Source: Desulfatiglandales bacterium (lineage in GTDB: Bacteria > Desulfobacterota > DSM-4660 > Desulfatiglandales > Desulfatiglandaceae). Taken from it: DNA of 64,000 nt. Position 1 is the first letter of the stretch, and the number at the start of each line of letters is the position of its first letter. The stretch covers positions 4,096,001 to 4,160,000 of the forward strand of contig OY759599.1 in assembly GCA_963662465.1 (NCBI GenBank), written 5' to 3'. Below are positions 1,082-33,794 of the stretch, piece by piece. Both the position numbers and the translations under genes were made by a program. The notes below the pieces were generated by a model. That model saw only the letters and a program-made list of their open reading frames with translations, was not told the DNA's origin and did not search any database.

Positions 1082-1836
1082 TATAAATGCACCCATTCAA
1101 GGATTAGTATGCCCAATAGGGTCGTGATGGTGCAGAACAGCCAGATAAAGTCCGACCGAGACCGGGAAAATTCGGAAAGGGAATGGAATTTCCCGTTGAA
1201 TCTGCGGCAAAGCATGGCCATATACACCCGCTCGGCCCGCTCCGAGGCCCGCACGAAAAGCATCCCCACAAGATAGGCGAATGTCCTGTAGGTGTGCAGC
1301 CGAGTGGACGGTTGAAACCCGCGGATCGCCGCTGATCGGACCAGCCGGTGATATTCCTCTTCCATGACGAAGATATATCGGTAGTTCAGCAGCAGGAGAT
1401 GTACCATCTTTTGCGGAACACCCAACCCGCCGAGAGCAGCCCCCAGGCTTGCAACGGAACTGGTGGCGATCAGCGCAATAAATACCAGCAGAATGGCATT
1501 GCTCTTGAGCATGATTCGGGCCGCAATCAAAACCCCCTCATGGGTTGCTGTGAGGGGTCCCAGGAAAAAAATGGGTTGGCCGGGGTAGGTAAAGGGGATC
1601 ACAAACCAGAAGAAGAGAACAAAACCGTTTACCAGCGCAATCCGTTTCCCCACTTCCCACAGGGGCAACCGGGAGGCGCCCAGGAGGACAAAGGAAAAGG
1701 CGAGGCCCAGAAAAAGGGCGGGGAATCGGTTTGAAAGGGCCACGGCAAAGGCATAGAGTGTTGCCATGACAATCTTGAAGCGGGGGTCGAGGCCGTGGAT
1801 GGGACTGGTGCCGTGCGCAAAGGGTTCCTGCAACAT
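1081..1836 (-). CDS. cbiQ: Ni/Co ECF transporter T component (CbiQ/NikQ)
   Basis: IHGLDPRFKI start motif, RYIFVM..E, RA.ERAERVY.AMLCR; ATG at 1836. Confidence 0.9.
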   Translation of the reverse strand: MLQEPFAHGTSPIHGLDPRFKIVMATLYAFAVALSNRFPALFLGLAFSFVLLGASRLPLWEVGKRIALVNGFVLFFWFVIPFTYPGQPIFFLGPLTATHEGVLIAARIMLKSNAILLVFIALIATSSVASLGAALGGLGVPQKMVHLLLLNYRYIFVMEEEYHRLVRSAAIRGFQPSTRLHTYRTFAYLVGMLFVRASERAERVYMAMLCRRFNGKFHSLSEFSRSRSDFIWLFCTITTLLGILILEWVHL

Positions 1837-1843
1837 AAATCCG

Positions 1844-2237
1844 TCAGCCTTTCTTGCGTGCGTCCATTTCACGGGTCTTGCGGCGAAAGTGGATATAAGC
1901 GGCCAAGCCCAACAAACCCAAAATATAGCCGATGCCGCCCAAAATATCGTGGAGGGTGGGCGCTTTGTCCCGGGATTCCGCAAACATTTTGAGTACCGGT
2001 CCGAGCCTTCGATCCAGGGATTGGTCCAGAACGTCGCGCATTTGATCCAGGTTAACGGTGGATGCTTCAATTGAATTTGCTTTCCGTGTGAACGGTATCA
2101 CCTTCCACCCATGCGAATATGTTTACCCTGTGGGCCATTGCGGAAGCTGACCAGAGCAGGCAAAGTATGAAAAGACATGCCGAAACAAAAATAATTTTCC
2201 GGCATTGAATAGGATCAAATCTCAAGAATGTTTTCAT
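1844..2237 (-). pseudogene. CbiL/NikL-like accessory membrane protein, internally deleted and frameshifted
   Basis: AAGGAG RBS + ATG 2237 gives a signal peptide and AHRVNIFAWVEGDTVHTESKFN*; the C-terminal part (DILGGIGYILGLLGLAAY) is in another frame directly after. Confidence 0.7.
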
Positions 2238-2246
2238 GATCTCCTT

Positions 2247-2852
2247 TCATGGGGCATCCACTGACAGCATTTCAGGTTGTACTTTTTTCAAAAATGCCAC
2301 ACAGAAAGTGGTGATGATCCCTTCGATGATCATTACGGGAAGATGTGCCGTCACCACCAGATAGGAGACTTTTAAAAAATTTTCCTCGGTGAAGGTCAGG
2401 GCCAAACCCACCATGACGGCGCCCAAAAAGACGGAAAGCGATCCGCACAAAAAAGCCGCCGGCAAGGCAATGCGAGGCCCCTTTCCCACGAGCTTACCGA
2501 ATAGATAATAACATAAAACGGCGGGCAGGGCCATGATCAGGGTGTTGACCCCGAGGGTCGTGATGCCGCCGAACTGAAAGAAAACGGCCTGGAGCGCCAA
2601 CGCCACAAGGATGACGGGAAAAGCCCCCCAGCCGAGAATAAGGCCCACAATCCCGTTCAGAATCAAATGAACACTGGAGGGACCGATGGGAACGTGAATC
2701 AGGGAGGCTACAAAAAATGATGCGGAAAGAATCGCGGCACGCGGGATGCGGTCGTAATTCAGTTTCTTAAGCCCTATGGCAGTGCCGGCAGCGGCCAGCA
2801 CAATGCCCGAAATAATCACCGGCCCGGACAGGACGCCTTCGGAAATATGCAT
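2247..2852 (-). CDS. cbiM: Ni/Co ECF transporter S component (CbiM/NikM)
   Basis: N-terminal metal-binding MHISEGVL, SVHL, GGITTLGVN, HLPVMIIEG. Confidence 0.92.
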   Translation of the reverse strand: MHISEGVLSGPVIISGIVLAAAGTAIGLKKLNYDRIPRAAILSASFFVASLIHVPIGPSSVHLILNGIVGLILGWGAFPVILVALALQAVFFQFGGITTLGVNTLIMALPAVLCYYLFGKLVGKGPRIALPAAFLCGSLSVFLGAVMVGLALTFTEENFLKVSYLVVTAHLPVMIIEGIITTFCVAFLKKVQPEMLSVDAP

Positions 2853-2876
2853 GATATGCCTTTCATAATAATTAGA

Positions 2877-2926
2877 GAGAAGCAAAGTCATTTGGTCAAA
2901 ACCGAGACCCTACGACTTTGCTTCTC
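2877..2926. repeat. 13-bp perfect inverted repeat (stem-loop) between porin and cbiM
   Basis: GAGAAGCAAAGTC (2877-2889) / GACTTTGCTTCTC (2914-2926). Confidence 0.7.
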
Positions 2927-2973
2927 ATAAGGCCCAGGAGGAGAGAGAGTTTTGGACCGTTTGTCAAAAAATT

Positions 2974-4113
2974 TTAGAATTCCGCGGTTGCCCGCAGACC
3001 GAAAATCCAGCCACTCGGGCTGTCGCCCTCTTTCATGGAATCCTTCATGTACTGAACATCTCCCGTAATGGCGAAGATATCATTCAAGGCAAAGCGACCG
3101 TAAACCTCGAATACGTCCGTGTGGTCAAGTTCCAGATTTCCGCCCCTCAAATGGGCGTAACCGATTCCGACATTGTCGTTTTCACGGCCCCACAGATTGC
3201 CGCCGATGTTCAACCCACCGGAATAGAGATCCTTGCAGTTAAGGGCCGCCTCATCGTCCAGTTGCCAGCCGAAACGGATCCACGCCCCCAGGATCTCCCC
3301 AAGTTGCTGATCAAAGGAGATCATGGTACAGCTCATCCGTTCCTTATTGGTGCCTGCCACATTGCTGAAATCACTGCTGGTGGTGTCCACGAGCAAACGG
3401 TAGTTTCCTTCACCCAGTCCGAAGTCCACCTTGTAACCCAGCTGGATTCCGTAAAAGTTGTAGGGTTCTTCGAATTCCCCTTCTTCGTCGTTGGTTCCCA
3501 TTGCCATCACCGCGCCTTTCACGGAAAACGCGCCGATTTCCCATTCCACGGCGCCGCCGATATCGTAGGAGGGCAGAAAGGCATTGGGGCCGTTCACCAG
3601 GGCTTCGTTCATGAACTGGGTAAATTCGTCGTTGGAAAAAGCGTTTTCATCCAGGTAATCCGTTGCGTCGATGATGCCGCCGGTGAGTCCCAGGGAGTGG
3701 TTTTCGCTGAAGGTGAAAGTGTGCTTATACCAAACCGTGAGCAGGTAGTCGCGATTTCGGCCGTTGATGTCTTTATAATCGTCTTGTACGTCCGCGGCCC
3801 ATGGCGCCAGAAAAAAAGGGGATCGCCCTTCTTCCATCAAACCGTTCCCGGCGCCGAATCCGAACTTGGCAAAGACCTCGTCGCTGTCGGTGGGTGTGAA
3901 ACTGATCTCCGGTTGAAAGACCATGGCGCCCCTGCCCTCGGATTCAAACCCTTCGGCATCGCTTAAGTCCTGATATTGCCATTCACCGGCGATAATACCG
4001 CCGATTGATAATTTATCGTTAATCTCGTAAGCAAATGCATTGCTTGCACAAAACAGAAAAATCCCCAGCATTGCCGGCAGCAAAGTCCTGTTTGGCTTCT
4101 TGATGTTGTTCAT
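2974..4113 (-). CDS. OprB-like outer-membrane porin
   Basis: Signal peptide (ASNAFA), amphipathic beta-strand pattern, DYLDENAFSNDE..QFMN motif, C-terminal Phe. Confidence 0.75.
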   Translation of the reverse strand: MNNIKKPNRTLLPAMLGIFLFCASNAFAYEINDKLSIGGIIAGEWQYQDLSDAEGFESEGRGAMVFQPEISFTPTDSDEVFAKFGFGAGNGLMEEGRSPFFLAPWAADVQDDYKDINGRNRDYLLTVWYKHTFTFSENHSLGLTGGIIDATDYLDENAFSNDEFTQFMNEALVNGPNAFLPSYDIGGAVEWEIGAFSVKGAVMAMGTNDEEGEFEEPYNFYGIQLGYKVDFGLGEGNYRLLVDTTSSDFSNVAGTNKERMSCTMISFDQQLGEILGAWIRFGWQLDDEAALNCKDLYSGGLNIGGNLWGRENDNVGIGYAHLRGGNLELDHTDVFEVYGRFALNDIFAITGDVQYMKDSMKEGDSPSGWIFGLRATAEF

Positions 4114-4139
4114 GTGTTCTTTCCTCCCCTACGGTTATG

Positions 4140-4916
4140 CTATTTTTCTTTCCAATCAAGGAATTTCACCCAGAGGACCGCCCCCAGTTCCACGTCTTTT
4201 TCCTGACCATCATGCTTGATTTTTTCGTTCGAGGTGTTCAAAGCGGCAAATCCCCACCAGCCCGCTTTTGGCGCGGCATAGGTGAAAACGCCGTTTTGAT
4301 CCGCCTTGACGACTTGGGTGACCATGTATTCGGTAGGCGCTTCTACTTTCTTTTCCCGATTGTAATATTCGATCTCAACTTCGGCGAAGGGGACCGGTTT
4401 TCCATCCAGTTTCACGATTCCCTGAAAAACGTTTCCGGCATAGAGACCGAACGGCTTTGACAGGGGAACGATCTCGGTTTTGAGCCCGATTTCCCGGTCC
4501 CAGCCTTCATCATCCCCAAAAGCCGCGACAACGGTTTTCGTATAGTGAACGATGAAACAGTCTTCCGCCGGTTCCCAGTAGGGTTTGGGAACCATGTAGA
4601 ACATATAGATGCCGGGTCGTTTAACAGTGTAGTCAGCCTTCCAGGACATGTGTCCCATGACCTTTGTTTCTTTCAGATTACACAGAAGATTCTGTTTTTT
4701 TCCGTCCGTCATGACGCCGAATTCCTGGGGTTTTACCAGCGGCATGCCAACGCCTTCAAAAGGGTGGGAGAAAGACAAAATCAGTGAAACCGTCTTGGAA
4801 TCCCCCTGCATGATCATGCTATCCGACGGAATGAGCATTCCGAAGTGGGCCATGGCCATATGGCCCGTGAATAGAAAAGACAATCCCAATATCAGGCTAA
4901 ACAGATTTTTTTTCAT
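4140..4916 (-). CDS. DUF4198 periplasmic protein (NikK/CbiK-associated type)
   Basis: Signal peptide ending [34 protein letters not shown]. Confidence 0.85.
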
Positions 4917-5051
4917 TTTATGATGCCTCCGTTTATGTTCTCGCTTCAATTTATGATCATTTGCGGCCGCTCTCGAAGCGACCGTTTTGTTTTGAATCGA
5001 TCCGATCGGTTCGCCTCTCAACCCGCATGCGCATGCCTTGCTGAAAACAGC

Positions 5052-5202
5052 CAAAAAAAAAGCCAAAAAGGCGGCTTCGGGGGTACACCCGATCCAGCCT
5101 TCTTGGCTTTTTTGGTTTTTGCTTCAGGTTTATCTCAGATGTGTAATTTCGTATTGCACATGCTATCGAGTGCTGAATAAACTCTTATTGCCGGGTTGTC
5201 AA
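5052..5202 (-). promoter_or_regulatory. Sigma70-like promoter and terminator-containing leader of the DUF4198-cbi operon
   Basis: TTGACA (5197-5202)-17 nt-TATTCA (5174-5179); GTGCAATACGAAATTACAC hairpin/box; GCCAAGAAGGC...CCTTTTTGGC-T9 terminator. Confidence 0.6.
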
Positions 5203-5242: not shown

Positions 5243-7163
5243 CACGGTAAATTTGTTCTAACAGGTATCACGCTTGGGGCACTGAATTTTTGGTCATCTT
5301 GAGATAGTCGAAGACACCCCTTACGTTCTGCGTGAGCTGGCGCATTTTCTGGGCTACACTGCGAACGCCTTTCGCCTTAATGACGCCCACCGCGAATCTA
5401 CGCAGCCTGGTCATGTTTTCAGGACCATTGCCGGTTCTTATTCGGCTTCGATCTTCGTCGTAGTTCCAGTCGATGATGTAATGGCACTCGTTTTCAATGC
5501 TCCAGTGACCGCGATTGATAGAAAGTACACGTTCGGGATTCGCCTGATCAGGTGATTGACTCGTTATGCCGTAAGCAACCTCAACTGTGCATTTACCGGT
5601 TTTCTTGTTTGTAACTTCTCTCTGGATCATAAAAGCCTGGCCGACATACGGGAAATCCAGGTATAGGTTAAGTTCGGTAGTCGTCCATATTTTGCGCACT
5701 TCGATGCGACCATGATCGGGAGCATCGTGTTGTATGAAATCAGGATCGTTGCAGCCCTCAAAATACAGGGAAATGTCTTGAAGTAATGTGGGCTGGTTGT
5801 TTTTGGCGATGAAATGGTAATGGGCGTTGCGTTGCTCGACCAAATATTTAGCAAAAGTCCTTTGGGTTAGCAGTGCGTCAGCTGAAATGACTTTGCCTTC
5901 GATATCGATCGCGTCCAGTAAAGGGGCAGCCGTTTTGATTTCATTGGTTCGCTTGAGTTCGTCTTTGCCTTCTACAGGGAGAGAACCGACTTTTTTTGGG
6001 TGTAACAGGTCTTAGTTTGATGGCCGACAGCACTCATGATGTGAGTCTGATAACCTTGTTCATCGATGGCATTACACATGGTTTTTCCATCGATGGCCAA
6101 GCTTTCGTCCTGTTCACCGTAAAGCAGATTCCAACGCTGGAGAGCTTTGTCGAGTTCTGTGGGGTCAACGCGAACCAGAACATCACGGATAGTAGACTGA
6201 CTGGGAGCTACATAGCGCTTATTTTCATATCGGCAACGGAAACGCTCAAGGGCTTTTTGTCCAAGACCATTTACCCAATCGGATATCGCCAGATAACCGC
6301 GCATTCCGCACAGTGTTGCGGCGGTGGCAATGGCCAGAACAGTGGAGAGCCTGTGACGTCGTCCCTGGGATCGACGCGGGTCGGGAATTTGAGCAAAAAA
6401 GTCGGGTAGAGATTTCATATGTTCCGCACTGAGCATGATTTTGTAACCTCCTGTAAGATATGGTTTTTTGAGAACAGGTCGGGATAACAGTGCTTGAACA
6501 TTGGAAACCAATGGTTTAAGAAAAACCATTTTCGGTGAATCCGCTTTATCGCTGTAGCCTTGGCGAGTTCGATGAAAACCCTTTGTTTTACCAACATATA
6601 TCCAATTAGACGCTCGATATACGGTTCCGTGGAATTGCTTTGGGTCCACAAAGGTTTCCAGGAGTACAACCGGATGCCCGAAACGCTCCTGCCAATCAGC
6701 CTGCATTCGCTTCCGACATAATGAAAGGATACGGGATGCGAGATTCGGAATATGCCATTCGGGCAAAATTAGAAAACGACTGTTATTGGTTACCAGTTTC
6801 AGTCGATCGTATTGATGGCGAAAATTCCATCCGATCCAGCTGTCCCTTGGTGTACATTTCAAAGCGGGAGCAGAAAAACTGACAAGCGCAATCCACTCAC
6901 TATTTAGTCTAGCTGTATACCAGAGGGTTTCGCTGATCTTGGGAAGAGCGCCCAAATAATGATGCGACTGCATCAGATGCTGAAAGCGTTGTTCTTCAAG
7001 CGGGCGGACTATTTGAATGCGGACTTGCTTAACGTTCAAGAATTTAAACCCCGAATTGGTTTGGTGCCTGTCACAGTATATACACCATCCGAGGGTTTCT
7101 GTCCATAATGTAGCGCAACTTTTATATTTTATTTGGATAATTCGGAAGAATAAATTCACCCTG
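5243..7163 (-). mobile_element. Complete ISAs1-family insertion sequence carrying an N-terminal DUF4338 domain
   Basis: Imperfect TIRs CACGGTAAATTTGTTCT / CAGGGTGAATTTATTCT; 10-bp TSD ACCCAAGATG at 5233-5242 and 7164-7173. Confidence 0.92.
5268..7039 (-). CDS. DUF4338-ISAs1 DDE transposase, split by a probable -1 frameshift at 5990-5997
   Basis: DUF4338 motifs (HHYLG, NNSRFLILP, LETFVD); ISAs1 motifs IPDPR, AIDGKT, NEI, ADALLTQ, RGHWSIEN, EDRSRIR; A AAA AAG at the frame junction; start uncertain (TTG 7039). Confidence 0.85.
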
Positions 7164-7297: not shown

Positions 7298-7464
7298 TTG
7301 ACAGAAAAACCGGCACTTGTTATAGGACCCGAATTCGTACGGCGCAAAACGAAATTGCGCGCATGATTCAAAGCGTAAAGACTGACACAATTTAGGTTTT
7401 AACAAAACAGGCCAAGAAGGCAATGTCGGATTGAAGTCCGGTGGTGTCTTCCCGGCCTTTTTTT
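7298..7464 (+). promoter_or_regulatory. Sigma70-like promoter and terminator-containing leader of the first TonB receptor gene
   Basis: TTGACA (7298)-17 nt-TATAGG (7321); GCGCAAAACGAAATTGCGC; GGCCAAGAAGGCA...TGTCTTCCCGGCC-T7. Confidence 0.6.
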
Positions 7465-7487
7465 ATGTGCAATGGAAAAGGGAGGGG

Positions 7488-8790
7488 ATGATTGAAAAGA
7501 GTGAGACCATATGGGGTCATGGGACGTTTATGTTCCTGGGTCTCTGGGTCGTGATGGTTTTTCTGCTGGGGACGTCGGTTTGCCCGAGTGATGCGGAAGA
7601 GCCGGAAGACAAGAAGGCCATCGCCCAAACGGGAGAAAAAAAGGCAGGCGCCGGAAAGGCCGTGCAACTGGAAGATGTGACGGTGATGGCGGCGCAACCG
7701 GGCGTTGAAATTACGCCGGATAAAACCGTCATTCGAATGGATGAGTTCGTTAAACCGGGAGATGTGCGAACCCTTACGGACGTGTTGAAAACCATGGGGG
7801 GCATCGACGTTATGCGCGTTAATCCCATGATGGCCAGTCCGGGAGACGAAGTGTCCATTCGGGGTATGAACGAGGGCCGTCTGGTGGTGGAAATCGACGG
7901 CAGGAGAATCAACCATAGCGGCTACTATGGAAGGTATATCGTGGACTGGTCAACGCTGAACATAGACGATGTCGAAAAGGTTGAAATCATCCGGGGTGGT
8001 CATTCGGTGCTGCATCCCTTTGCCATCGGCGGCGTGATCAACATCATCACCAAAAAGGGCAAAAAAACCGATGATCCCAAGCCCAATGTGCGCGCCAAGG
8101 CGGGTGTGGGGGCCTTCACCACCACCACGGAATCCCTTTCCATTGACGGCGGGGCATTCAATGTGGTGGGCTATGATTTTTCAGTAAACAATGGTTCCAC
8201 CAACGGCTACTTGCGGAACAACTACCAGGACAGCACCACGCTCAATGGACATTTAAGTTTCTTTATGCCCATGGACGCGGTGCTGGAACTGGGGGCCAAG
8301 CATGCGGATGTAAATTACGGATTTCCAGTGGTAAACGACCCTTCCCGGGCCGATTACGATGCCGGCTCTCCCAACTTCTATGCCAATGCCGACCAGCTCA
8401 GGCACCTGAACTGGCCCCTTTAGCAAGGTGACCGTGGGGTACGAATATCAACTCCTGGGCGCCCCCACTGAAATTTCGGACCTGTTCCGGGTTAACTCCG
8501 GGTACATCCAGGATGTCATCACCATCGGAGATCAATGGCGCCTTACGCCGGGGGTTCGTTATTACCACGTGGATATGAGCACCTACTACTCCCAGTTCGG
8601 CAAAGGATGGCCCGTAGCCGGCAATACGGAGACGGATGAGGGGTTTTATCCCAATTCCCCACTTCAAACTCTGGGGCGGTGAAATCGAGACGAGCCTTCG
8701 CTTGGGCCGGTTTCAGGGGACCCTTTCCTACAACTATCAAAACTACAATGCGGACGATACCGGATTTGAGGCGGAATGGTGGATCGCCGG
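7488..8790 (+). pseudogene. TonB-dependent receptor, plug intact and barrel fragmented
   Basis: LEDVTV TonB-box-like segment, VSIRG, VEIIRGGHSVL..AIGGVINIITK; stop at 8423, then short barrel fragments in shifted frames (DQWRLTPGVRY; GGEIE). Confidence 0.8.
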
Positions 8791-9202
8791 GGAGAAACGG
8801 TCCAGGGGGAGATCATCCGCATGGGCAATCTCACCGCCATCTATCGGAGAGAAGGAAGGATACGCCGCCTGGCAGTTGCAGGAGATGGCATGTGCGAAAA
8901 ATGCCTTTCAGAAGGCGCTTCAGCACGCGGAACCGAAAAGCGACACGGCTTTGAAAGCGTCCCATGCACTGACGGCCATCCGGCAAATCACGGATGCAGC
9001 GCAAAATTGAGTTTCCAGGACCAAGGCAACTGCACCTGAGCTATAATTCGGCCCCGTCAATACAGTCCACGATTTCACGGGGTGAACGTCCAGGGGGGCA
9101 ATGAATATTTGCCTTAGGGTCAAATACTAAATAATCCTCCGGTGTAAAGCACTTGAGATGAGAAACTTAAGGTTCAATACTCGTTACGGAGTTTCGCAAC
9201 GC

Positions 9203-9234
9203 TCGCCATTTCGCAAGCCCTGCTCGATGATTTT
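9203..9234 (+). repeat. 32-bp copy of the 3' end of the APC permease gene
   Basis: TCGCCATTTCGCAAGCCCTGCTCGATGATTTT identical to 329-360. Confidence 0.8.
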
Positions 9235-9295
9235 TAAATCGATGGGGACACCATACCATGGCGCGTCCCACTGTGCCCGGGGGCGATGAAAAATC

Positions 9296-9496
9296 TTGAC
9301 TTTCCGGAAAGCCTTCAGTACAAATGGCATCCTAAAATTTCGGTTGAAGCCGATCGCATTCGGATTTCAGAAGAAAATCCACAATAAAATTGCTTTGCCG
9401 CCAGTATAGTGGCGGAGACGTAGAGAGCTGGAACAAAAAGGCCACGAAGGTCTATGTCCCTTAAAGAGGGATGTGGATTCGTGGCCTTTTTTTGTT
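9296..9496 (+). promoter_or_regulatory. Promoter and terminator-containing leader of the second TonB receptor operon
   Basis: TTGACT (9296)-17 nt-TACAAA; AAAAAGGCCACGAAGG...TTCGTGGCCTTTTTTT long hairpin. Confidence 0.55.
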
Positions 9497-9678
9497 GAAG
9501 GCAATTTCGACAATCGAAGTCCGGAGGACGGTGTTCGCCTGCCAGGGTCATCCGCCGTCCTCCGGGTTAAGCGCCCCCGTGAAAAAGGAGGCTCGGTTCA
9601 ATATTACCGGTGCATCTCTTTCTCGTCAAGCGGGGAATTCAAGATTTTGAACGGATTGACACAAGGAGGAGAGGCATA

Positions 9679-11910
9679 ATGAAAATGATGTCGTACAGGA
9701 AAAAGTTATGGGCAGGTTTCATCTTCATCGGAATCATGAACGTCATGTTGCCGTTAACGGCGGCGGCAGAGGAAGAAGCAACGGATCTCGGGAATCTCGT
9801 CGTCACCGGCGAGAAGCTCTTTGTCCCCACGATGGAATCGGATGAAACCGTCTATACGGGCACCAAAGTGACCAAAGAGGGGATCGAGAGTGAAGGGAGC
9901 AAGGCGCAAACCAGCGTTTACCAGGCCATCGATATTCTTCCCGGAATCAGTGTGGAAAGCGCTGATCCATACGGCCTTGGCGCAGAGCAAAGCGCTATCC
10001 GGGTCCGGGGCATGCGCGGCTATCTTGGCGCCATGACAGTGGAAGGGGTGCCCAATTATGGCGGCAACCCCATCGGTCCTCGGGAATATCTTTACGACAC
10101 GGAGAATTTCCAATCCATTTCAGTCTACAAGGGGGCTGTTCCGGGGGACCTGGGAACGGGCGTTGGAGATCGTGGAGGCGCTATTGAGTTGAGTCCGCAA
10201 TGGCCCGGTGAAACCTTCGGAGCGCTGCTCAAGCAAGGGGTGGGCACGGATGGTTACCATCGGAGCTTCTTGCGACTCGAATCCGGTTCGTTGACCGAGG
10301 CTGACACCCGATTTTCCGGATCCTATTCTTACACCCAGGCCGAAAAATGGAAAGGACCGGGTGAAGCCGGCCCCAGGAACAACGCAAACATAGCCTTGTC
10401 GCAACCGATCGGCGACCATGTGGATGTGAAGGTCTGGTTCAATTACAATGATCTGAAGAAAAATCTTTACAGGACACTCAATTATAACCAGATTCAGAGC
10501 CTGTCGGCCAATTACAAGTTTGATTACAATCCGGATCTTACGGGAACGAAAGCTCAGGATCTCTATTATTACGATTACAACCGGGGCAGCTTCGAAAACG
10601 ATGATGTTCTTGCCCTTATCACGATTACACCCTTCGATCGGTTGAAATTTACCTTCAAGCCCTACTACAGCCATGAGAATTCGGAGATTTATCAGGGCGT
10701 GACCTCCGGCGGCGGCCGCGTCCAGAAGAGGAACAGAGAGATCAAGCGCCCAGGGGCAATTGGTGAAGTGACATGGAACAGCCCGTTTTTCACGACGGCC
10801 CTTGGTTATCATTTTGAAAAAAGCGATATGAAGATTTACACAGAGAACTACGGCATCACCTCATCCGGGCTCAACTGGCAGGGCTATGGCAACTTTGCCT
10901 CACCCAGTGACTCCTATATCAACAGCCCTTACTTTAAGATTGCCGGGAGTCATGAGCGCTTCGACTGGCAGGCAGGGCTCAAGTATTTCAGATATGATGA
11001 AGGCGCCAGCGAAGGATATGTCACGGATTCAAAGACATATGAGTTGATAAGAGCGCCTGATCTTGACCGGGAAGAGAGAGTCTACGATATTCTGCTTCCC
11101 ACCGTCGGGGCCGCATTCAAGTTTACTGAAAGCGTTCAGGCCTATGCGAGTTATGGAAAGAACTTTATTCGCCCCTACGCATACATGCCCCTGGTAAATC
11201 TCTACAATAACTACCGACAGAGGTTCATCGATGCCGGGATCACCTTGAACGACCTTTTTAGCGGGTATGAAATGGAGCAGACAGACGCCATTGATTTCGG
11301 CGTACGATGGAATACCCCCTGGTTTGACATCACGCCCACAGTCTTCTTCAATAAAAGCAAAAACCTGTTCACCAATGTTTATGACCCGCGGGTCGATCTC
11401 AGCTACCAACAAAACAATGCAAAGGCTACAGGCTACGGTATCGATGTGGGAACCAACTTCTACCTTGCCAGACCCCTGACGTTTTTCGTCAATCCAAGCT
11501 GGACGGTTCTCACATATGATGACGACATTACTGATTCCAAGGGAAATACAATTCCGCTGAAAGGCAATCAGGTGGTGGATACGCCCGAATTCATGATAAA
11601 AGCCGGTTTGGTTTACAAATGGAGTGATCTTGAGGTTATTCCCATGGTGAGATGGCTAAGTTCGCGATATGGAAATGCGGAGAACACCCAAAAGGTCGAT
11701 TCCTACGCTATTGTTGATCTGCGACTGACCTATGCACTGCAAAATATCCCTGTTGCCCGGGCATTGAAATTCTCTTTGGACCTGAACAACCTGTTCAATA
11801 AGGAGTATATTTCCGTTATCAGTGCCTCGGATTATACCACGGGTGGAAAGGCCGGCTATTACACCGGTAGCCTGTTCACGACGGTGTTTACGGTATCTCT
11901 GGAGTTTTAG
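9679..11910 (+). CDS. TonB-dependent outer-membrane receptor
   Basis: AGGAGG RBS, signal peptide, LVVTG TonB box, plug (IRVRG, VYKG), LNNLFNKEY, terminal Phe. Confidence 0.92.
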   Translation: MKMMSYRKKLWAGFIFIGIMNVMLPLTAAAEEEATDLGNLVVTGEKLFVPTMESDETVYTGTKVTKEGIESEGSKAQTSVYQAIDILPGISVESADPYGLGAEQSAIRVRGMRGYLGAMTVEGVPNYGGNPIGPREYLYDTENFQSISVYKGAVPGDLGTGVGDRGGAIELSPQWPGETFGALLKQGVGTDGYHRSFLRLESGSLTEADTRFSGSYSYTQAEKWKGPGEAGPRNNANIALSQPIGDHVDVKVWFNYNDLKKNLYRTLNYNQIQSLSANYKFDYNPDLTGTKAQDLYYYDYNRGSFENDDVLALITITPFDRLKFTFKPYYSHENSEIYQGVTSGGGRVQKRNREIKRPGAIGEVTWNSPFFTTALGYHFEKSDMKIYTENYGITSSGLNWQGYGNFASPSDSYINSPYFKIAGSHERFDWQAGLKYFRYDEGASEGYVTDSKTYELIRAPDLDREERVYDILLPTVGAAFKFTESVQAYASYGKNFIRPYAYMPLVNLYNNYRQRFIDAGITLNDLFSGYEMEQTDAIDFGVRWNTPWFDITPTVFFNKSKNLFTNVYDPRVDLSYQQNNAKATGYGIDVGTNFYLARPLTFFVNPSWTVLTYDDDITDSKGNTIPLKGNQVVDTPEFMIKAGLVYKWSDLEVIPMVRWLSSRYGNAENTQKVDSYAIVDLRLTYALQNIPVARALKFSLDLNNLFNKEYISVISASDYTTGGKAGYYTGSLFTTVFTVSLEF

Positions 11911-11958
11911 ATCCCTTCGACGAAAAGAAACAATAGCATCCAACTGGAGAAGAAAATA

Positions 11959-13596
11959 ATGAAAAGCGTAAAGATATGGACCGTAATGATGGCGATCGGC
12001 TTACTTATGGCCTGCTCGATGGCCGCAGGGGCCAAAAAAGTTGAAGCAGGGCCGTCAGGCAGTTATTGCGTGGTGGGCATTGGGCCGGGGGATGCGGACC
12101 TTTTGACGGCAAGGGCCGTATCTGTCATCCGCAAGGCGGATATTGTGTTCTGCAACTCGGAAACCCGTGAGAAGTTGGCTGGGCTTGTGGACTTTCAGAA
12201 CAAGCAGGTGCTGGATGGCTATGGGACCCTGTTCCGTTTCCATGGAAAGGTTTGCGGCGCCCTCAGCGAGAACGAGCGCACCCGGCATAAGATGACCTGT
12301 GAAGAGTACCACAAGAAGCAGGCGGAATTCGCGACCCTGGTTCGCGGAGCAGTGGCCGAGGGCAAGAACGTGGTCATGTTGAGCCATGGAGATCCTACCA
12401 TTTACGGACCGGACATCTGGACGCTCAAAGAACTGGCCGATCTGCATCCCTTTGTGGTGCCGGGCCTGAGCGCCTTCAACGCGGCAAATGCAGCCCTTCA
12501 GGTGGGACTGGGCGAGGTGATTCTCACCGCACCTTTTCAGGGAAAGGACGAAGAAAAGGGAAAAGACAGCATCGAAAACCTGGCCGAACACCAAAGGGCG
12601 ACCCTGGTGATCTTCATGCCCCGAAATATTGAAAGACTTTTGGCAAGGCTTAGAACCTCCTGTAATCCGAATACGCCAGTGGCCGTTGTCAGCCATGCGG
12701 GGCAACAGGGCAAGGAAAAGGTGATCACCGGTACGGTGGCGGACATAGCTCGGAAATTAGTGGGACAGAACACCAGGTTTTCCCTGGTCTATGTGGGCAA
12801 CGCATTGAACGAGGCCCAGCACAACGGGAAGGTTTTGAAAAAGGGTTCAAGACCCGGCAAGTTCTATCTTGTGGGGGTAGGGCCCGGCGACCCGGATCTG
12901 GCCACCCTCAGGGCGCTTGAGGTCATGGGAAAAGCGGATCTGATCTTCGCCTCAAAAAGGCTCGCTGAACGTTTCCAAAAGGAACTTTCCGGGAAAGTGG
13001 TCATAAACGGTTATCATCGGCTCTTTCCCTTTTACGGCAAAAAGTGTTCCAAAGTCAGCGAAGAAGAAAAAACAAGAGAAAGGATGAGCTGTGAAGAATA
13101 CCATCAAAAGCAGGCGGAATTGGCCCGATTGGTTCGCGAGGCCGTGGCGGAAGGCAAAACCGTTGCAATGCTTGACAGCGGGGACCCGCTCATTTACGGC
13201 CCCTGCTCCTGGACCCTAAAGGAATTCAAAGACATACAATCCGAAGTCGTACCCGGCCTGAGCTGTTTCAACGCGGCCAACGCGGCCCTTGCACAGGGCG
13301 TCACCGAAGGAAAGCGTTCCCATTCCGTTATTTTGGCTTCGGGCTGGTCCGTGGAGAAAATGGCCGCGCTTCAAAGCACTCTGGTGCTTTTCACCATGCG
13401 GACCGAATTCAAGAAATTCATTGACGCCCTGTCCAGACACTATCCATCCGATACGCCCATCGCCATCGTCTCCAGCGCGGGTTATGCACGGAAGGAAAAG
13501 GTGCTGAGGGGAAGGCTGGACAGCATCATGGCGCAGACGACAAAGGAGCGCCTGCCTTTTGAGTACATGATTTATGTGGGGGATTTCCTTAAATGA
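11959..13596 (+). CDS. Exported protein with two tandem tetrapyrrole (class III SAM) methyltransferase domains, CobM/CbiF-like fold
   Basis: Two copies of VG.GPGD.DL.T.RA, GDP.IYG and VVPGLS.FNAANAAL; N-terminal signal/lipobox LMAC. Confidence 0.85.
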   Translation: MKSVKIWTVMMAIGLLMACSMAAGAKKVEAGPSGSYCVVGIGPGDADLLTARAVSVIRKADIVFCNSETREKLAGLVDFQNKQVLDGYGTLFRFHGKVCGALSENERTRHKMTCEEYHKKQAEFATLVRGAVAEGKNVVMLSHGDPTIYGPDIWTLKELADLHPFVVPGLSAFNAANAALQVGLGEVILTAPFQGKDEEKGKDSIENLAEHQRATLVIFMPRNIERLLARLRTSCNPNTPVAVVSHAGQQGKEKVITGTVADIARKLVGQNTRFSLVYVGNALNEAQHNGKVLKKGSRPGKFYLVGVGPGDPDLATLRALEVMGKADLIFASKRLAERFQKELSGKVVINGYHRLFPFYGKKCSKVSEEEKTRERMSCEEYHQKQAELARLVREAVAEGKTVAMLDSGDPLIYGPCSWTLKEFKDIQSEVVPGLSCFNAANAALAQGVTEGKRSHSVILASGWSVEKMAALQSTLVLFTMRTEFKKFIDALSRHYPSDTPIAIVSSAGYARKEKVLRGRLDSIMAQTTKERLPFEYMIYVGDFLK

Positions 13597-13631
13597 CCAA
13601 CGAAACCAATTTACGGCTCAAGGAGGGACCA

Positions 13632-14453
13632 ATGAAGACCAGATTTTTTTTCATGACTATTTGTTTGGCGATCACCATGATCGCCGGTTCTCAAGCCTTT
13701 GCGCACAATATCTGGATTAACCCGGAGAATCATTGCCCGCAGGTGGGAGAAACCGTGGATATCGGAATCGGGTGGGGGCACAGCTACCCCGCCGGTCGTG
13801 TTGACCAGGAAATGAAGCCGGGAATGTTTGGGTATATCCGGATTCTGGACCCGGATGGAATAAAAGTGGAACCTGCGAAATTGTCCGAAAAACGCTACCG
13901 GTTGAAAATCGAAAAGGAGGGTGTATATCTTGTGACCGCGGGAATTAAGCCCGGAGTCTTCACAAAGACCCCTCAGGGAAGGCAATGGAGCGACAAGAAA
14001 GGGGTGAAAAATCCCATTTCCTGTACCAGTTTTTGCATTGAGGCGAAAACGGTGATTGTCGCCGGGGCGAATGACAAAAATCTCATGGCGGCGACCGGTC
14101 AGGAACTTGAGATTATTCCCCTTTCCAATCCAAAGATGCTGAAGCCGGGGGATGAGCTGAGCCTCATGGTGATGTTCAGGGGAAAGCCCGCGCCGGACGT
14201 TGCCGTCAACGCCACCTACGCCGGTTTTGCGGATGGAAAAAAGCCTAAAGATATTGCTCCCCATAGACAAGTCAAAGGCAAAAAGTCCCATTTTCCGGTC
14301 AGCACCAAGACCGACAGTCAGGGCAGGGCATTGATTCCCTTGACCAAATCCGGCTACTGGATGATTGTTATTTCTCATAAGAGCCCTTACCCGGATAAGG
14401 AGACCTGTGATGAGTATATGCACAACATGGCCTTTACCTTTCAGGTCCAATAG
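13632..14453 (+). CDS. DUF4198 periplasmic protein
   Basis: Signal peptide AFA-HNIWI, GWGH, LEIIPLSNP, KTDSQGRA, GYWMI. Confidence 0.85.
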   Translation: MKTRFFFMTICLAITMIAGSQAFAHNIWINPENHCPQVGETVDIGIGWGHSYPAGRVDQEMKPGMFGYIRILDPDGIKVEPAKLSEKRYRLKIEKEGVYLVTAGIKPGVFTKTPQGRQWSDKKGVKNPISCTSFCIEAKTVIVAGANDKNLMAATGQELEIIPLSNPKMLKPGDELSLMVMFRGKPAPDVAVNATYAGFADGKKPKDIAPHRQVKGKKSHFPVSTKTDSQGRALIPLTKSGYWMIVISHKSPYPDKETCDEYMHNMAFTFQVQ

Positions 14454-14546
14454 GCGTAACCGTTTTCACAGGCAGGTTTCTGCCTTAGACAATCCTGATG
14501 TCAATTATCATCAACTTACGATGTTTCTTATATTAACGGTTTTGTG

Positions 14547-15044
14547 ATGAAAAAATTTCTACGGTCCTTTCTTCTCCTCTTCCTTCTCGTCTTCATTCTT
14601 CTGCGGACGTCTTTTGATGCGTGGTCCCACGGGACGGACTACAGCCTTGTCAAAGACGCGAATTTGGCGGCTATTGAATTCCATTACTCGGACGGCGAAC
14701 CCATGTCCTATGCCGAAGTACTTGTATTCAGCCCGCAAAACCGCCAGGTGGAACATCAGAACGCAAGAACCGACAAGCATGGGAAGTTCGCCTTCTGCCC
14801 GGATATACAGGGGGCCTGGCTGATCACCGCGAATGACGGCATGGGCCATTTGTGTGAGGCAACGGTGGCGATAGGCCCGGAAACGTCCTTTGAAAAGGCT
14901 GCCAAGCCGCAGGGTTATACCGATTCCGGGCATCCTCTTCAGGGTTCAAAGATTTTAAAGATCATTTCCGGACTCAGCCTGATATTGAACCTTGCATTTG
15001 CAGCCGAATTCTTTCATCGATGGTTAATCGCCGCCAAGGGGTGA
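14547..15044 (+). CDS. CbiL/NikL-like metal uptake accessory protein
   Basis: Signal peptide then HG, YSDGEPMSYAEV, RTDKHGKFAF.PD, DGMGH, C-terminal TM. Confidence 0.65.
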   Translation: MKKFLRSFLLLFLLVFILLRTSFDAWSHGTDYSLVKDANLAAIEFHYSDGEPMSYAEVLVFSPQNRQVEHQNARTDKHGKFAFCPDIQGAWLITANDGMGHLCEATVAIGPETSFEKAAKPQGYTDSGHPLQGSKILKIISGLSLILNLAFAAEFFHRWLIAAKG

Positions 15045-15048
15045 TCGA

Positions 15049-16401
15049 ATGGAAATGGCACAGGAAGAGCTTCAACGGGGATTCGGGCTGTCAACAGCCA
15101 CATATATGGTCATCGCCAGCATGATTGGAACCGGGATTCTGGTTTCCCCCGGGTACATGATGGCGTCTCTCGGGAATTACCCCGTTATATTCGGGCTTTG
15201 GGCCATCGGCGGGTTGCTGGCCCTTTGCGGGGCACTTTGCGTGGCGGAATTGGCGGCCGCCCTGCCGCGGGCGGGTGGGGAGTACGTTTACCTTCGCGAA
15301 GCATACGGTCCCATGCCCGCCTTTCTCTCCGGTTGGACGTCTTTTTTTGTCGGTTTCTCGGCGCCCCTGGCAGTGGCCGGCTATGTTGCGGCTTCATACC
15401 TTTTGACGCCGTTTCAGTTTGCTAAGGACGAAACGGAACAAATGATCAAGGTGGCGGCCGCCGTCATTATCGTTGCGGTTACTTTGCCCAATCTTCTGGG
15501 CCACCGTCAGTCCGCCTGGACGCAAAACCTCACGACAATTCTCAAGCTGGGTCTGTTTGTGGTTCTGGTGGCGGCCGCGTTTTTATGTGGCGATGGGCGC
15601 CTGGCGCACATTTCACTGGGGCAGCCCATGGGAAAGGTGGGACTGGAAACCGCGGCGACACAGTTGTTCTATGTCATGTTTGCCTACAGCGGTTGGAACG
15701 CTGCAAGCTATATGGCCGGCGAGGTGAAAAATCCCGCGAAAACCCTCCCGCGGTCACTGCTCCTGGGTACTGGGGTTGTCATTGTGCTTTATTTAGCGCT
15801 CAACCTTGTTTTTGTCTATGCAGTTCCTCTGGCCGGGGTGGGATTTGACAATGCGGAACAGGTCCCCCAGATGGCCGTCAGAAATTTATTTGGCGTGAAG
15901 GCTGCGAGCGTTTTCAACGTTATGTTGGGATTGACGTTTCTGGCCACGGTGAGCGCTTTCATTATCACCGGTCCCAGGGTCTACTATGCCATGGCAAAAG
16001 ATGGATTGTTCCCATCATTGGCGGGGCATGTCAGTCCAAAAGGACGGGTCCCCGTCTATGCGATGATCTCGCAGAGCGTCTGTGCCATCGTCATTTTGTT
16101 CGTGACGGACTTCCGGAACCTGTACCAGTATACCTCTGTGGGATTGTCGGTTTTTGCATTGCTTGTTATCGGCGCCGTCTACGTCCTCAGGTGGCGCCGG
16201 CCGGATATGGAAAGGCCGTTTCGTCTGCCCGGATATCCGGTTGTTCCGGCGATCTTCCTGGCGGTAATTCTCTTCATGACGGTGTTCGCCTTCAAGCAGT
16301 GGCCAAAGCCATCAGCTTATAGTATCGGTAGTATCCTTGCCGGTATCCCGGTGTATTATGCCTGGACCTTCTATGTTCGCCGCTTCGGAAGCCCTGCTTG
16401 A
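15049..16401 (+). CDS. APC-family amino acid permease
   Basis: MIGTGI, LPRAGGEYVYL, FAYSGWN, GEVKNP, PRVYYAMA; ~12 TM segments. Confidence 0.92.
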   Translation: MEMAQEELQRGFGLSTATYMVIASMIGTGILVSPGYMMASLGNYPVIFGLWAIGGLLALCGALCVAELAAALPRAGGEYVYLREAYGPMPAFLSGWTSFFVGFSAPLAVAGYVAASYLLTPFQFAKDETEQMIKVAAAVIIVAVTLPNLLGHRQSAWTQNLTTILKLGLFVVLVAAAFLCGDGRLAHISLGQPMGKVGLETAATQLFYVMFAYSGWNAASYMAGEVKNPAKTLPRSLLLGTGVVIVLYLALNLVFVYAVPLAGVGFDNAEQVPQMAVRNLFGVKAASVFNVMLGLTFLATVSAFIITGPRVYYAMAKDGLFPSLAGHVSPKGRVPVYAMISQSVCAIVILFVTDFRNLYQYTSVGLSVFALLVIGAVYVLRWRRPDMERPFRLPGYPVVPAIFLAVILFMTVFAFKQWPKPSAYSIGSILAGIPVYYAWTFYVRRFGSPA

Positions 16402-19623: not shown

Positions 19624-19701
19624 TTGATAATTTTGTCGTTGACAAGGAATTATTTTTGTGACCATCTGAAAACCCTTTTGGAATCCGAAAACGGTGACGT
19701 T

Positions 19702-20586
19702 ATGCACGATATCAACTACTTTCACGAGCACGAACTCAAAGAACACGATTTCCTGGGCTGCTGTAAAGACTGCCAAAACAGCCTGAACATCATTAAACCT
19801 CATATTCTGGCATTTGCAGATAAAATTCGGAAATACACGCCGCAGATGCTACAAGACCTGCCACCGGACGAGCTGTATCGACTCTATCAGCTTTTAGACG
19901 ATCTGGCTCACATGAACGCGGGCGCACATCTGGCCGGTCTTATCCTTGAAGAGGAAGCGATCAAGTCCGTACTGCCGGTCATTCGCGCCTATTACACCAT
20001 GTTTTTTTCCATTCATGAAACTCAGTTGGCTGAAGCATTGCTTCATGCGGACGATGCTTGGAAGACCCTTTCCGGGTTTCCCCTTTATCCGCGTTATGAA
20101 GCATTGATCAAAGGGCAGATGGAATCCATGCCCGATTTGATCACCACAAGAATCGCTTTCATCGGGTGTGGTCCTGTGCCCATGAGCCTGATTCTCATGG
20201 CAAAGCTGTATGGGACATTGTCTCTCGGGTTGGATGCCTCCAAAGACTGTGTTCGGATGGCAAAGGCAGTCATCCGGACACTGGGATTGGGGAATCAGGT
20301 CGAAATCATGGTGGGAGATGATACGTCCCTTGAAGATCACACCTGGGATGCGGTGCTGATAGCGGCCCTGGCGGAACCCAAAGCTCGGATATTTGAAAAC
20401 CTGCGGCGCATCCTGTCGGGACAAAACCGCAGGGTCCCCGTTATTTACCGAACCTATACGGGAATGCGAGCCGTACTGTATGAACCGGTCGGTTCCTCGG
20501 ATACACAAGGGTTCCGGATCGTTAAAGAGGTCTTTCCCACGGGCCGGGTCAACAACACCACGATTTTTGCCGAACTGGAGGATTGA
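19702..20586 (+). CDS. Nicotianamine synthase (NAS) family protein 1
   Basis: FPLYPRY, FIGCGPVPMS, AALAEPK.RIF, IYRTYTGMRA.LY.PV, P.GRVNNT motifs characteristic of NAS (archaeal MtNAS-like). Confidence 0.85.
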   Translation: MHDINYFHEHELKEHDFLGCCKDCQNSLNIIKPHILAFADKIRKYTPQMLQDLPPDELYRLYQLLDDLAHMNAGAHLAGLILEEEAIKSVLPVIRAYYTMFFSIHETQLAEALLHADDAWKTLSGFPLYPRYEALIKGQMESMPDLITTRIAFIGCGPVPMSLILMAKLYGTLSLGLDASKDCVRMAKAVIRTLGLGNQVEIMVGDDTSLEDHTWDAVLIAALAEPKARIFENLRRILSGQNRRVPVIYRTYTGMRAVLYEPVGSSDTQGFRIVKEVFPTGRVNNTTIFAELED

Positions 20587-21398
20587 TGGAGGTTACGTAT
20601 GAATCCATCCGGTGCGAATTGATCCGGATCGACGGGTTGTTGCGCACTCTAACAACGGATGACATCGCGCAGGCGCCCGAGCGTGTGTATCGCTCGCACC
20701 TGGCGGGTCTGAATCGTCTGGCGGCAACTCCCGTGCCGGATGAAATCGTAAAAAAACTGGCATCGGACGAAAACCTCATCCCCATGGTCGGACGCATCGC
20801 TCGGGTGAGACGGTTGATCGGATTAAAGCTGGAAATGCAATTGGCGGAATCCATCATTCTTCATCGGGACCCGTGGTCGCTGATCAAAAAATTCACCTAT
20901 TACGCCAACTATGTATCTCTGGCTCGCATGGAATTCGAGGGGGCAGGTCTGAAACCGGGGGCACGCGTCGTCTTTTTGGGCAGCGGGCCTCTTCCCCTCA
21001 GTCTGATCTGTCTTTCAGAGGCATATGGCATAAAAGGGGTGGGGATCGAACAGGACCAGAAAATTGCGGGGCTTTCAAAAAAGATGATTCAAACACTGGA
21101 TCTGGATCCTTTTATCACCATCCTCCATGGCGATCACTTCTCCCTGCCGATTGAGGAAACATGCGCATTGGTCATGGTGGGCGCCGATGCCGTACCGAAA
21201 AAATCTATTTTTGAACACCTTGCTTCCATATTTCCACCGGGGCAGATGATCTCCTACCGAATTTACGAAAAGGGTTTGCGGCGCCTTCTGGATGACCAGT
21301 CCATATTTGAATTGCCAAAGGAATTTAAAGAATGCGCCAGGGTTCACCCGGAACCGCCGGTGAACAATACCTGCGTGTTTGCCGTAAGGGTTGATTGA
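20586..21398 (+). CDS. Nicotianamine synthase (NAS) family protein 2
   Basis: LE.QLA, FTYYANYVSLARME, FLGSGPLPLS, KGLRRLL, HPEPPVNNT; start overlaps the NAS1 stop (TGATG). Confidence 0.85.
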   Translation: MEVTYESIRCELIRIDGLLRTLTTDDIAQAPERVYRSHLAGLNRLAATPVPDEIVKKLASDENLIPMVGRIARVRRLIGLKLEMQLAESIILHRDPWSLIKKFTYYANYVSLARMEFEGAGLKPGARVVFLGSGPLPLSLICLSEAYGIKGVGIEQDQKIAGLSKKMIQTLDLDPFITILHGDHFSLPIEETCALVMVGADAVPKKSIFEHLASIFPPGQMISYRIYEKGLRRLLDDQSIFELPKEFKECARVHPEPPVNNTCVFAVRVD

Positions 21399-32352: not shown

Positions 32353-32568
32353 ATAGCTTGATCAGAAAAAACCAATCGGCAATATCCATTTTTGGCTTCT
32401 TGTAATTCCCTTGTTGTCTCTGTATATTGGGGCGGCTCCTTATGATGAAGAGAAAAATGAGGAAGAAGGGATTTGGCTATGGTTTCAGGAATCATTGATG
32501 GTCGAGCGGCCTTCGGGCGTGGCTCTAATCAAGATAGAGGCAAAGCCCAAAAATGGCAAAACAGAAAT

Positions 32569-33762: not shown

Positions 33763-33794
33763 AGCTGTAATGCAAATTTCCGAGGCCTTTTGAG

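Follow-up and report, generated by a model that had tools for sequence, protein, structure and literature searches.

The gene at positions 11959..13596 of a 64,000-nucleotide stretch of a Desulfatiglandales genome (assembly GCA_963662465.1, contig OY759599.1; the whole stretch is hereafter called the window) encodes a 545-residue protein that is a variant of a known fold, the class III S-adenosylmethionine (SAM) methyltransferase fold, in an undescribed, putatively periplasmic module, and that is distinct from CbiF/CobM. Judged from its sequence, the protein is not a precorrin methylase, because the basic tetrapyrrole residues have been lost and no corrin-ring enzymes were found in the closed host genome. 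The 'precorrin-4 methylase' label that is common for members of this family is a mis-annotation, now corrected. Our preferred explanation, which is tentative and which we regard as quite possible rather than probable, is that the protein is a periplasmic methyltransferase that would be fed by exchange of SAM for S-adenosylhomocysteine (SAH) through a LAT-type permease, and would act on a non-tetrapyrrole metal cargo imported through a TonB-dependent receptor.

In Bacteria, SAM is held to be cytoplasmic; therefore, signal peptides on methyltransferases are usually ignored. If our explanation is true, SAM chemistry can be run in the bacterial periplasm in a way that has not been described, and sulfate reducers, cable bacteria, and syntrophs would have a chemical means to unload trace metals. 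SAM export by the permease, if real, would also account for many exported 'SAM-dependent methyltransferase' genes, including a large Bradyrhizobium-type hypothetical family. Three points are new here: the altered charge in the substrate pocket, the narrow distribution of the Cys pair, and the association of the permease with exported SAM folds that are unrelated to the clade. Our literature search, which was thin on subscription papers, found no characterised member of the clade, no periplasmic SAM-dependent methyltransferase, and no SAM-exporting APC permease.

The features of the gene and its operon (all on the plus strand) are as follows.

11959..13596, exported tandem protein with the class III SAM-methyltransferase fold, 545 residues (open reading frame (ORF), Pfam, AlphaFold model)
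11959..12033, predicted Sec signal peptide, about residues 1-25 (sequence; hydropathy rule)
12004-12015, lipobox-like LMAC, peptidase type uncertain
12058..12807, domain 1, residues 34-283; SAM-contact motifs kept, Ser in place of the canonical Lys
12253..12300, C99-x14-C114 insert, likely a structural disulfide (conservation across tandem proteins)
12856..13593, domain 2, residues 300-545; nearest structure CbiF/CobM, Asp in place of the canonical Lys
13045..13092, C363-x14-C378 insert, likely a structural disulfide (conservation across tandem proteins)
9679..11910, TonB-dependent receptor; likely ATG at 9679, longest ORF from 9610
13593..14453, DUF4198 protein with a signal-like start; overlaps the methyltransferase stop
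14544..15044, NikL-like Ni/Co transporter accessory subunit (42 bits against a cut-off of 100)
15049..16401, LAT-type APC permease and candidate exchanger of SAM and SAH (profiles, structures, gene context)

Architecture of the tandem protein

The 545 codons are read through without an internal stop. Pfam matched PF00590 over two stretches (E 4e-83, 279 bits), and the two domains share 45% identity, which bears out the two class III methyltransferase domains that had been claimed in a first reading of the letters alone (hereafter, the sequence-only reading). The duplicated C-x14-C insert and its flanking motifs also read exactly as claimed, FHGKVC-x14-CEEYHKKQ in domain 1 (C99, C114) and FYGKKC-x14-CEEYHQKQ in domain 2 (C363, C378). 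In the AlphaFold model (predicted local distance difference test (pLDDT) 88, predicted template-modelling score (pTM) 0.87), the nearest structural match of domain 2 was CbiF/CobM (4E16) with Z 19.7 and a root-mean-square deviation (rmsd) of 2.3 Å over 217 residues; across the CbiF/CobM entries, Z was 19-20 and rmsd 2.2-3.0 Å. On this model, the assignment to the two-lobed class III SAM-methyltransferase fold (PF00590) holds. The two domains may well pack in a defined way, as the high pTM suggests, and the single-chain pseudo-dimer envisaged at the outset is a plausible fold for the tandem protein.

A contig from a public sequencing run, possibly that of the source sample, is identical to window positions 9205-15156 (0 differences). 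In related strains, 792 bases between the repeats (window 12416-13219) are deleted in frame, giving a 282-residue hybrid of domains 1 and 2 that was seen as P0125 and in contigs of runs X1 and X2; the X2 contig additionally lacks 13632-14891. The tandem can collapse through recombination. Contigs from three RNA runs (one study, related strains) span parts of the operon, which is no proof of transcription.

Clade membership and predicted export

A homologue search gave 911 matches among 7,995 scored candidates, and the best 120 of the 911 were tandem proteins with 60-95% identity. To delimit the wider clade, we searched 1.84 billion representatives with a profile and built a tree of 171 domains, in which the 545-residue protein falls in a clade apart from CbiF/CobM, CobA, CbiL, and CbiH (support 0.97). 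Most clade members are signal-bearing single-domain proteins of about 290 residues; others carry a fusion to DUF4198, molybdopterin-oxidoreductase-like domains, or rhodanese. The clade was detected in 35 of 301 genomes of the phylum (E ≤ 1e-40; at most 8 candidates scored per genome), and loci L013 and L015 are from Candidatus (Ca.) Electrothrix. Cultured carriers include Desulfosarcina variabilis and Desulfocarbo indianensis. A metagenome scan over 3 of 64 parts yielded 5 clade loci and 75 canonical loci, the latter being used as a control. In a plasmid search with domain 2, the best 30 of 127 matches, which were those listed, were canonical cobM-type.

Signals were judged by a hydropathy rule, not by SignalP. 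The set comprised 121 proteins including the query; three with partial starts were dropped, leaving 118 complete N-termini, all of which have a hydrophobic stretch ahead of the first domain. Among the stretches upstream of canonical methylase domains, 0 of 75 passed the rule, although this control is an easy one since many of the 75 loci are CysG fusions. The 545-residue protein starts with a basic n-region and a hydrophobic h-region, followed by LMAC. A lipobox-like motif occurs in 70 of the 118 members, the others mostly resemble cleavable signals by eye, and a Tat motif occurs in none of the 118. Because a relative with 95% identity reads LMVC at the place of LMAC, the type of signal peptidase is uncertain, and the protein may be cleaved by either. 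Of the signal peptide and lipobox noted at first, the signal-like start is conserved, and the lipobox remains an uncertain assignment. That lipoprotein and cleavable signals replace each other inside one family argues for genuine export, and so do the fusions of relatives to DUF4198 or to domains whose CxxC spacing is typical of haem-c sites. The sequence-only reading had named homologues without a signal and within cob operons as the observation that would count against it; instead, the complete family members have signal-like starts, and no recurring corrin-ring neighbour was identified (see below).

SAM contacts and substrate residues

According to PMC4731766, NirE contacts SAM through P27, D105, I108, T133, and G215. 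We placed the NirE residues on the 545-residue protein by motif spacing. The contacts correspond to P43/D145/I148/S171/G248 in domain 1 and P309/D409/I412/S435/G508 in domain 2; P43, D145, S171, G248, D409, S435, and G508 are invariant in the tandem proteins, and P309 is nearly so. The SAM-contact motifs GxGPGD, GDP, PGxS/T, and AG are invariant or near-invariant in both domains and near-invariant throughout the clade, in which identity is 27%.

The residues on the tetrapyrrole side differ. Ahead of the GDP motif, canonical loci have Arg in 72 of 74 cases and Lys in 72 of 74. At these positions, domain 2 has Met/Leu and, in 111 of 114 tandem proteins, Asp; domain 1 has Leu/Met and, in 108 of 114, Ser; and the single-domain set has Asp/Glu at the Lys position in 36 of 51. 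The RLKGGDP..GR motif is absent from the 114 tandem proteins, and the YD.L/YA.SL motif was found in 73 of 75 controls versus 0 of 46 clade proteins. NirE R100, K102, R111, and E114 fall on M404, D406, P415, and W418 in domain 2, and Pro415, the counterpart of R111, is invariant. As the Arg and Lys that serve tetrapyrrole binding and catalysis have been replaced, a tetrapyrrole substrate, which the sequence-only reading had allowed, is unsupported. We infer from these substitutions that SAM binding is retained and that the acceptor is not a tetrapyrrole.

PF00590 matches five genes of the closed host genome (100% complete). Three of these belong to the exported clade, and the other two, according to their sequences, are CobA/HemD-like and RsmI-like. 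CbiC was not found in this genome, and tblastn gave no CbiG match and no separate CbiF, CbiH, or CbiL gene. The earlier remark that the gene has no tie to cobalamin synthesis is supported by this result.

All four Cys of the inserts are invariant in 114 of 114 aligned tandem proteins. The insert is present clade-wide, but at least two Cys occur in it in just 3 of 51 single-domain relatives. Because of this rarity, the Cys pair is likely a structural disulfide staple of the tandem subfamily rather than a conserved active site, and a metal or catalytic site was set aside on the same count; of the two roles suggested at first, disulfides or metal sites, the former is kept. A central role for the Cys pair or for the tandem form is unsupported because most clade members are single-domain proteins without the pair.

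Gene neighbourhood

After the removal of three duplicates and one cut gene, 74 loci were kept. Genes up to 3.5 kb away on the same strand were counted as neighbours; the loci are related to one another, and some of them stop at contig edges. The neighbours were the TonB receptor (51 loci), APC permease (48), DUF4198 (43), NikL-like (19), FmdE-like (15), an MFS/spermidine-synthase fusion (13), and an exported nucleoside-hydrolase/FmdE fusion (6). No corrin-ring enzyme was among the identified recurring neighbours, singletons not being all annotated. The gene of the window is indeed flanked by a TonB receptor upstream and a DUF4198 gene downstream, and the mapped clade loci bear out its place in a TonB uptake operon. 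The DUF4198 protein, which we take to be NikK-like, is fused to the methyltransferase in three relatives (P0138, P0147, P0193). The MFS/spermidine-synthase fusion occurs in 12 of 35 tandem loci. Hydropathy of 13 sequences (MFS/spermidine-synthase/TPR fusions at L002:16486-19734 and in 12 aligned relatives) predicts 13 helices with the N-terminus inside; thus, the SAM-fold domain, whose glycine motif is GLASG, would face the periplasm.

Of the 48 loci scanned, two (L005, L158) have a cobalamin riboswitch upstream of the operon, and two further riboswitches are on the wrong side or strand. Regulation by B12 as a rule was therefore rejected, many of the loci being without the operon start. At the window no cobalamin riboswitch was found; the four of the genome lie elsewhere. 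Mo/W-type transporter genes occur near fused clade forms.

The mature part of the receptor 9679..11910 has no Cys, unlike the Cys/Sec-motif receptors of some relatives. TonB receptors that are split after RLPCP stand beside single-domain clade members at L039, L043, L159, L164, L166, L173, and L189. They are consistent with the NCBIfam PCPU selenoprotein family, and a selenol/thiol site on the receptor would fit a soft-metal cargo. The Cys/Sec motif was rejected as a general feature of the partner receptors, most of which are without its Cys; for 19 of 21 scanned receptors, the best match was the FCYXU family, yet below its cut-off. Window positions 7431-9010 hold a remnant of a PCPU-type (selenoprotein family) TonB receptor; its frame reaches a TAG stop after 330 codons, beyond which come deleted pieces and the end of a TPR gene. 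An apparently intact copy lies about 19 kb upstream (L039:6473-8584), and its first ORF ends in RLPCP. Selenocysteine read-through of the receptor at 7431 was rejected, as this deleted duplicate has no open frame and ends in TAG.

Two tandem nicotianamine-synthase-like genes (PF03059) lie at 19624-21398, 3 kb past the operon and beyond an opposite-strand lactate-utilisation (LUD) cluster. The pair was seen in none of the other 73 mapped loci.

The permease and the proposed supply of SAM

The closest profiles and structures place the permease 15049-16401 in the LAT/SLC7-type APC group: TIGR00911 was the top profile match, far below its cut-off, and the nearest PDB matches were xCT, 6F2G, and LAT2 at 300-320 bits. 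The 48 loci in which the permease is near the clade gene comprise 28 of 35 tandem, 13 of 27 single, and 7 of 12 Mo-domain-fused loci, so that it is the sole partner besides the receptor that spans all three architectures. None of the 75 canonical methylase loci, of which 42 are at least 7 kb long, has it.

If the permease supplies SAM, loci without the class III gene would be expected to have another exported SAM enzyme beside the permease. Three sets of such partner-less permease loci were studied. In set (a), 20 loci of the same phylum not beside a known clade gene, six had an adjacent signal-bearing SAM-fold gene, one a broken class III gene, one a cytoplasmic O-methyltransferase, and 12 none. 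The six belong to the LCM family (L203), Methyltransf_11 (L205), FkbM (L208), an unnamed family described below (L206, truncated), and, below the Pfam cut-off, a DOT1-like type (L194, L195). In set (b), 21 loci with 1.5-kb flanks from a sample of 401 genomes of another phylum, nine had the unnamed family directly downstream (seven close kin), two had signal-bearing class I enzymes, one had a class I enzyme with its start outside the locus, and nine had none. In set (c), 3 of 49 plasmid matches, a signal-bearing class I enzyme overlaps the permease start in Methylosinus (C49), and the other two had none. The total is 18 of 44. For comparison, 68 class I methyltransferase ORFs were found among the roughly 6,100 ORFs in the host genome, and 3 of the 68 pass the signal rule; the search for them was seeded with sequences of this analysis and not exhaustive. 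Moreover, 4 of 10 long permease matches consist of a permease, a hydrophobic stretch, and a SAM-fold domain (two different families), read-through artefacts being possible.

The unnamed family (L214-L222, L236, L206; P0282) has a signal peptide, a Y.FSG.D motif, and no Pfam match. It lies directly behind the LAT-type permease in Bradyrhizobium-type genomes (Pseudomonadota) and is fused to the permease in P0277 and P0278; a search gave 7,464 matches among 8,000 candidates. All 50 listed structural matches of P0282 are class I methyltransferases or carry such a domain, with Z only 7.2-9.0, and Foldseek gave no match at E ≤ 0.001. A class I SAM-methyltransferase fold is tentatively predicted for this family. 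At least five unrelated SAM-fold families were found beside the LAT-type permease. The sequence-only reading had missed the permease, two genes past DUF4198, which could meet that reading's own objection about the cytoplasmic location of SAM.

Proposed mechanism

The protein would be exported through Sec, with a lipid anchor in some species as predicted from the conserved signal. Its two domains would then pair like a CbiF-type homodimer, as modelled, and a disulfide would close each insert. The TonB receptor would import a metal-chelate, in this operon probably of Ni or Co because DUF4198, NikL, and cbiMQO genes are nearby. LATs are exchangers, and SAM and SAH both carry an amino-acid end; the co-occurrence and fusions with unrelated exported SAM folds suggest that the permease moves SAM out and SAH in. 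In the last and weakest step, methylation of a donor group of the chelator would lower its affinity for the metal, which would pass to DUF4198/NikL and on to the energy-coupling factor (ECF) transporter. A complex prediction with the permease, the methyltransferase, and SAM scored 0.00, which counts neither for nor against the proposal.

Several observations weigh against it. For NirE, PMC4731766 reports that K102A abolished activity and strongly lowered SAM binding, and the equivalent Lys is absent from the 545-residue protein; thus, loss of catalysis is possible. CbiF is likewise without that Lys and has His/Gln there. About 11 clade members apparently have no signal peptide. In 26 of 74 clade loci, no permease was found within 3.5 kb, and 10 of 37 genomes with a high-scoring permease gave no clade match (hand count); a strict pairing of permease and class III clade was rejected. 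Among the partner-less permease loci, 26 of 44 had no signal-bearing SAM-fold neighbour, and the 18 positives fall to about 10 after close kin are collapsed. Methyltransferase-linked and unlinked permeases are mixed in the tree (root unresolved), and a single clade of linked permeases was not seen. Gene co-occurrence is silent on the direction of transport. Finally, the riboswitches in 2 of 48 loci and the Mo/W-type genes near fused forms indicate several metals.

A more general module also appears possible, and we put it forward tentatively: a LAT-type permease would send SAM out while taking SAH in, five or more unrelated families of exported SAM-fold enzymes would draw on this supply, and the class III clade would methylate imported metal chelators, releasing Ni, Co, Mo, or W.

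Alternative explanations

As the main alternative, the protein could be a non-catalytic periplasmic binding protein whose SAM pocket captures imported SAM, SAH, or a nicotianamine-type aminocarboxypropyl metallophore, which the permease would import. The loss of the canonical Lys and Arg needed for NirE catalysis fits this alternative, as do the order of receptor, periplasmic protein, and permease, which is typical of uptake, the two nicotianamine-synthase-like genes of the window, and the exported nucleoside-hydrolase/FmdE fusion near six clade genes. We nevertheless consider it less likely than our proposal. Repeated co-option of at least five unrelated SAM-fold families beside the permease is less economical than a shared SAM supply, the nicotianamine-synthase-like pair is confined to one mapped locus, and the host genome makes its own SAM; as MetK is present, there is no obvious need to import it.

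Still less likely, the protein would be a biosynthetic enzyme that, in the periplasm and together with the MFS/spermidine-synthase fusion, completes a secreted metallophore or alters a component of the envelope; the receptor would re-import the metal-loaded product, and the permease would still supply SAM. The predicted periplasmic face of that fusion and its presence in a third or so of the tandem loci (12 of 35, as above) speak for such an enzyme, and paralogues often share one operon, as for successive methylations; peptide N-methyltransferases occur in the same fold (OphA, Z 15). However, the fusion is missing from this window and genome region, and no recurring precursor-synthesis genes were found in the loci.

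We regard as very unlikely that the protein modifies or binds an imported tetrapyrrole or corrinoid, which was an option of the sequence-only reading and would agree with the 'novel porphyrins' suggested in PMC3543383. The nearest structures are CbiF/CobM, and two loci have a cobalamin riboswitch upstream of the operon; however, the basic substrate residues are replaced, the YD.L/YA.SL motif is missing from the clade proteins, and the window has no riboswitch. Riboswitches for B12 also control cobalt uptake.

Least probable is an uncleaved N-terminal anchor that keeps the enzyme on the cytoplasmic face, where SAM is and its export is unneeded: some clade members have no signal, but the lipobox-like motifs and mostly cleavable-looking signals of the others, the fusions to DUF4198 and CxxC-bearing domains, the adjacent ccsA-like genes, and the invariant Cys pairs speak against it.

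Comparison with known systems

CbiF/CobM, the (cobalt-)precorrin-4 C11-methyltransferase (PF00590; TIGR01465; PDB 4E16, 1CBF, 3NEI), gave the top hidden Markov model and PDB matches of the 545-residue protein and shares its fold and SAM-contact motifs. The 545-residue protein differs in that it is under the TIGR01465 cut-off despite its two domains (197.9 versus 259.65 bits; single-domain relatives, 92-121 bits), has a signal peptide, the tandem form, and an insert of about 30 residues, and lacks both the Arg four residues before GDP (Met/Leu in both domains) and the ILTR-loop Arg; furthermore, its host genome has no detected corrin-ring genes. The uroporphyrinogen III methyltransferases SUMT/CobA/CysG/NirE share the fold and SAM contacts, but the 545-residue protein has no equivalents of R100, K102, R111, and E114, and the genome has its own canonical copy. 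In the same phylum, the cobaltochelatase CbiK-P of Desulfovibrio likewise has a cobalamin-pathway fold that was relocated to the periplasm, and its gene belongs to a metal-uptake operon; it differs in having another fold and requiring no cytoplasmic co-substrate.

In Pelobacter carbinolicus, tetrapyrrole-methyltransferase-like genes (Pcar_0191, Pcar_0192, Pcar_0851) were described beside TonB receptors, one of them a c-type cytochrome, and new porphyrins were suggested (PMC3543383, 2012). Judged by architecture, these genes probably belong to the same clade. The account is annotation only, and the section concerned makes no mention of export, SAM supply, a permease, or a tandem form. PMC3104491 describes an amino-acid permease of yeast that carries SAM and, in the bacterium Chlamydia, a SAM/SAH antiporter (CTL843), which are precedents for amino-acid-permease SAM transport and for SAM/SAH counter-exchange; however, both serve SAM import, CTL843 is of the DMT family, and neither feeds an exported enzyme. 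The NikKLMQO/CbiMNQO ECF systems for nickel/cobalt uptake (PMC11247825) share DUF4198, NikL-like, and cbiMQO genes with the operon or its surroundings; the passages searched in that source do not mention a methyltransferase or an APC permease.

Other loci of the genome and the window

A second clade module lies just upstream of the window in the same genome (L039:6473-18357; G000:C1 about 4084500-4096400). It holds the PCPU-type receptor, a single-domain exported class III protein, the exported nucleoside-hydrolase/FmdE fusion, NikL, ExbB/ExbD/TonB, a broken permease copy, and duplicated cbiMQO. The third clade member is an exported protein of 586 residues (L040:6035-9798; G000:C1 about 7578000-7581800). 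It is fused to molybdopterin-oxidoreductase-like domains, follows a TonB receptor, and has a Mo/W-type ABC transporter as well as a PBP/HTH regulator nearby; the permease is not beside it.

Within the window, the minus strand at 368-5066 encodes a cbiMQO-type Ni/Co ECF transporter, an OprB-like porin, and a second DUF4198 gene. Two minus-strand ORFs at 5268-7159, between the ECF genes and the broken receptor, resemble an insertion-sequence transposase split in two. At 32473-34733, a C-5 cytosine DNA methylase (PF00145) is followed by DUF4928, likely a restriction-modification pair.

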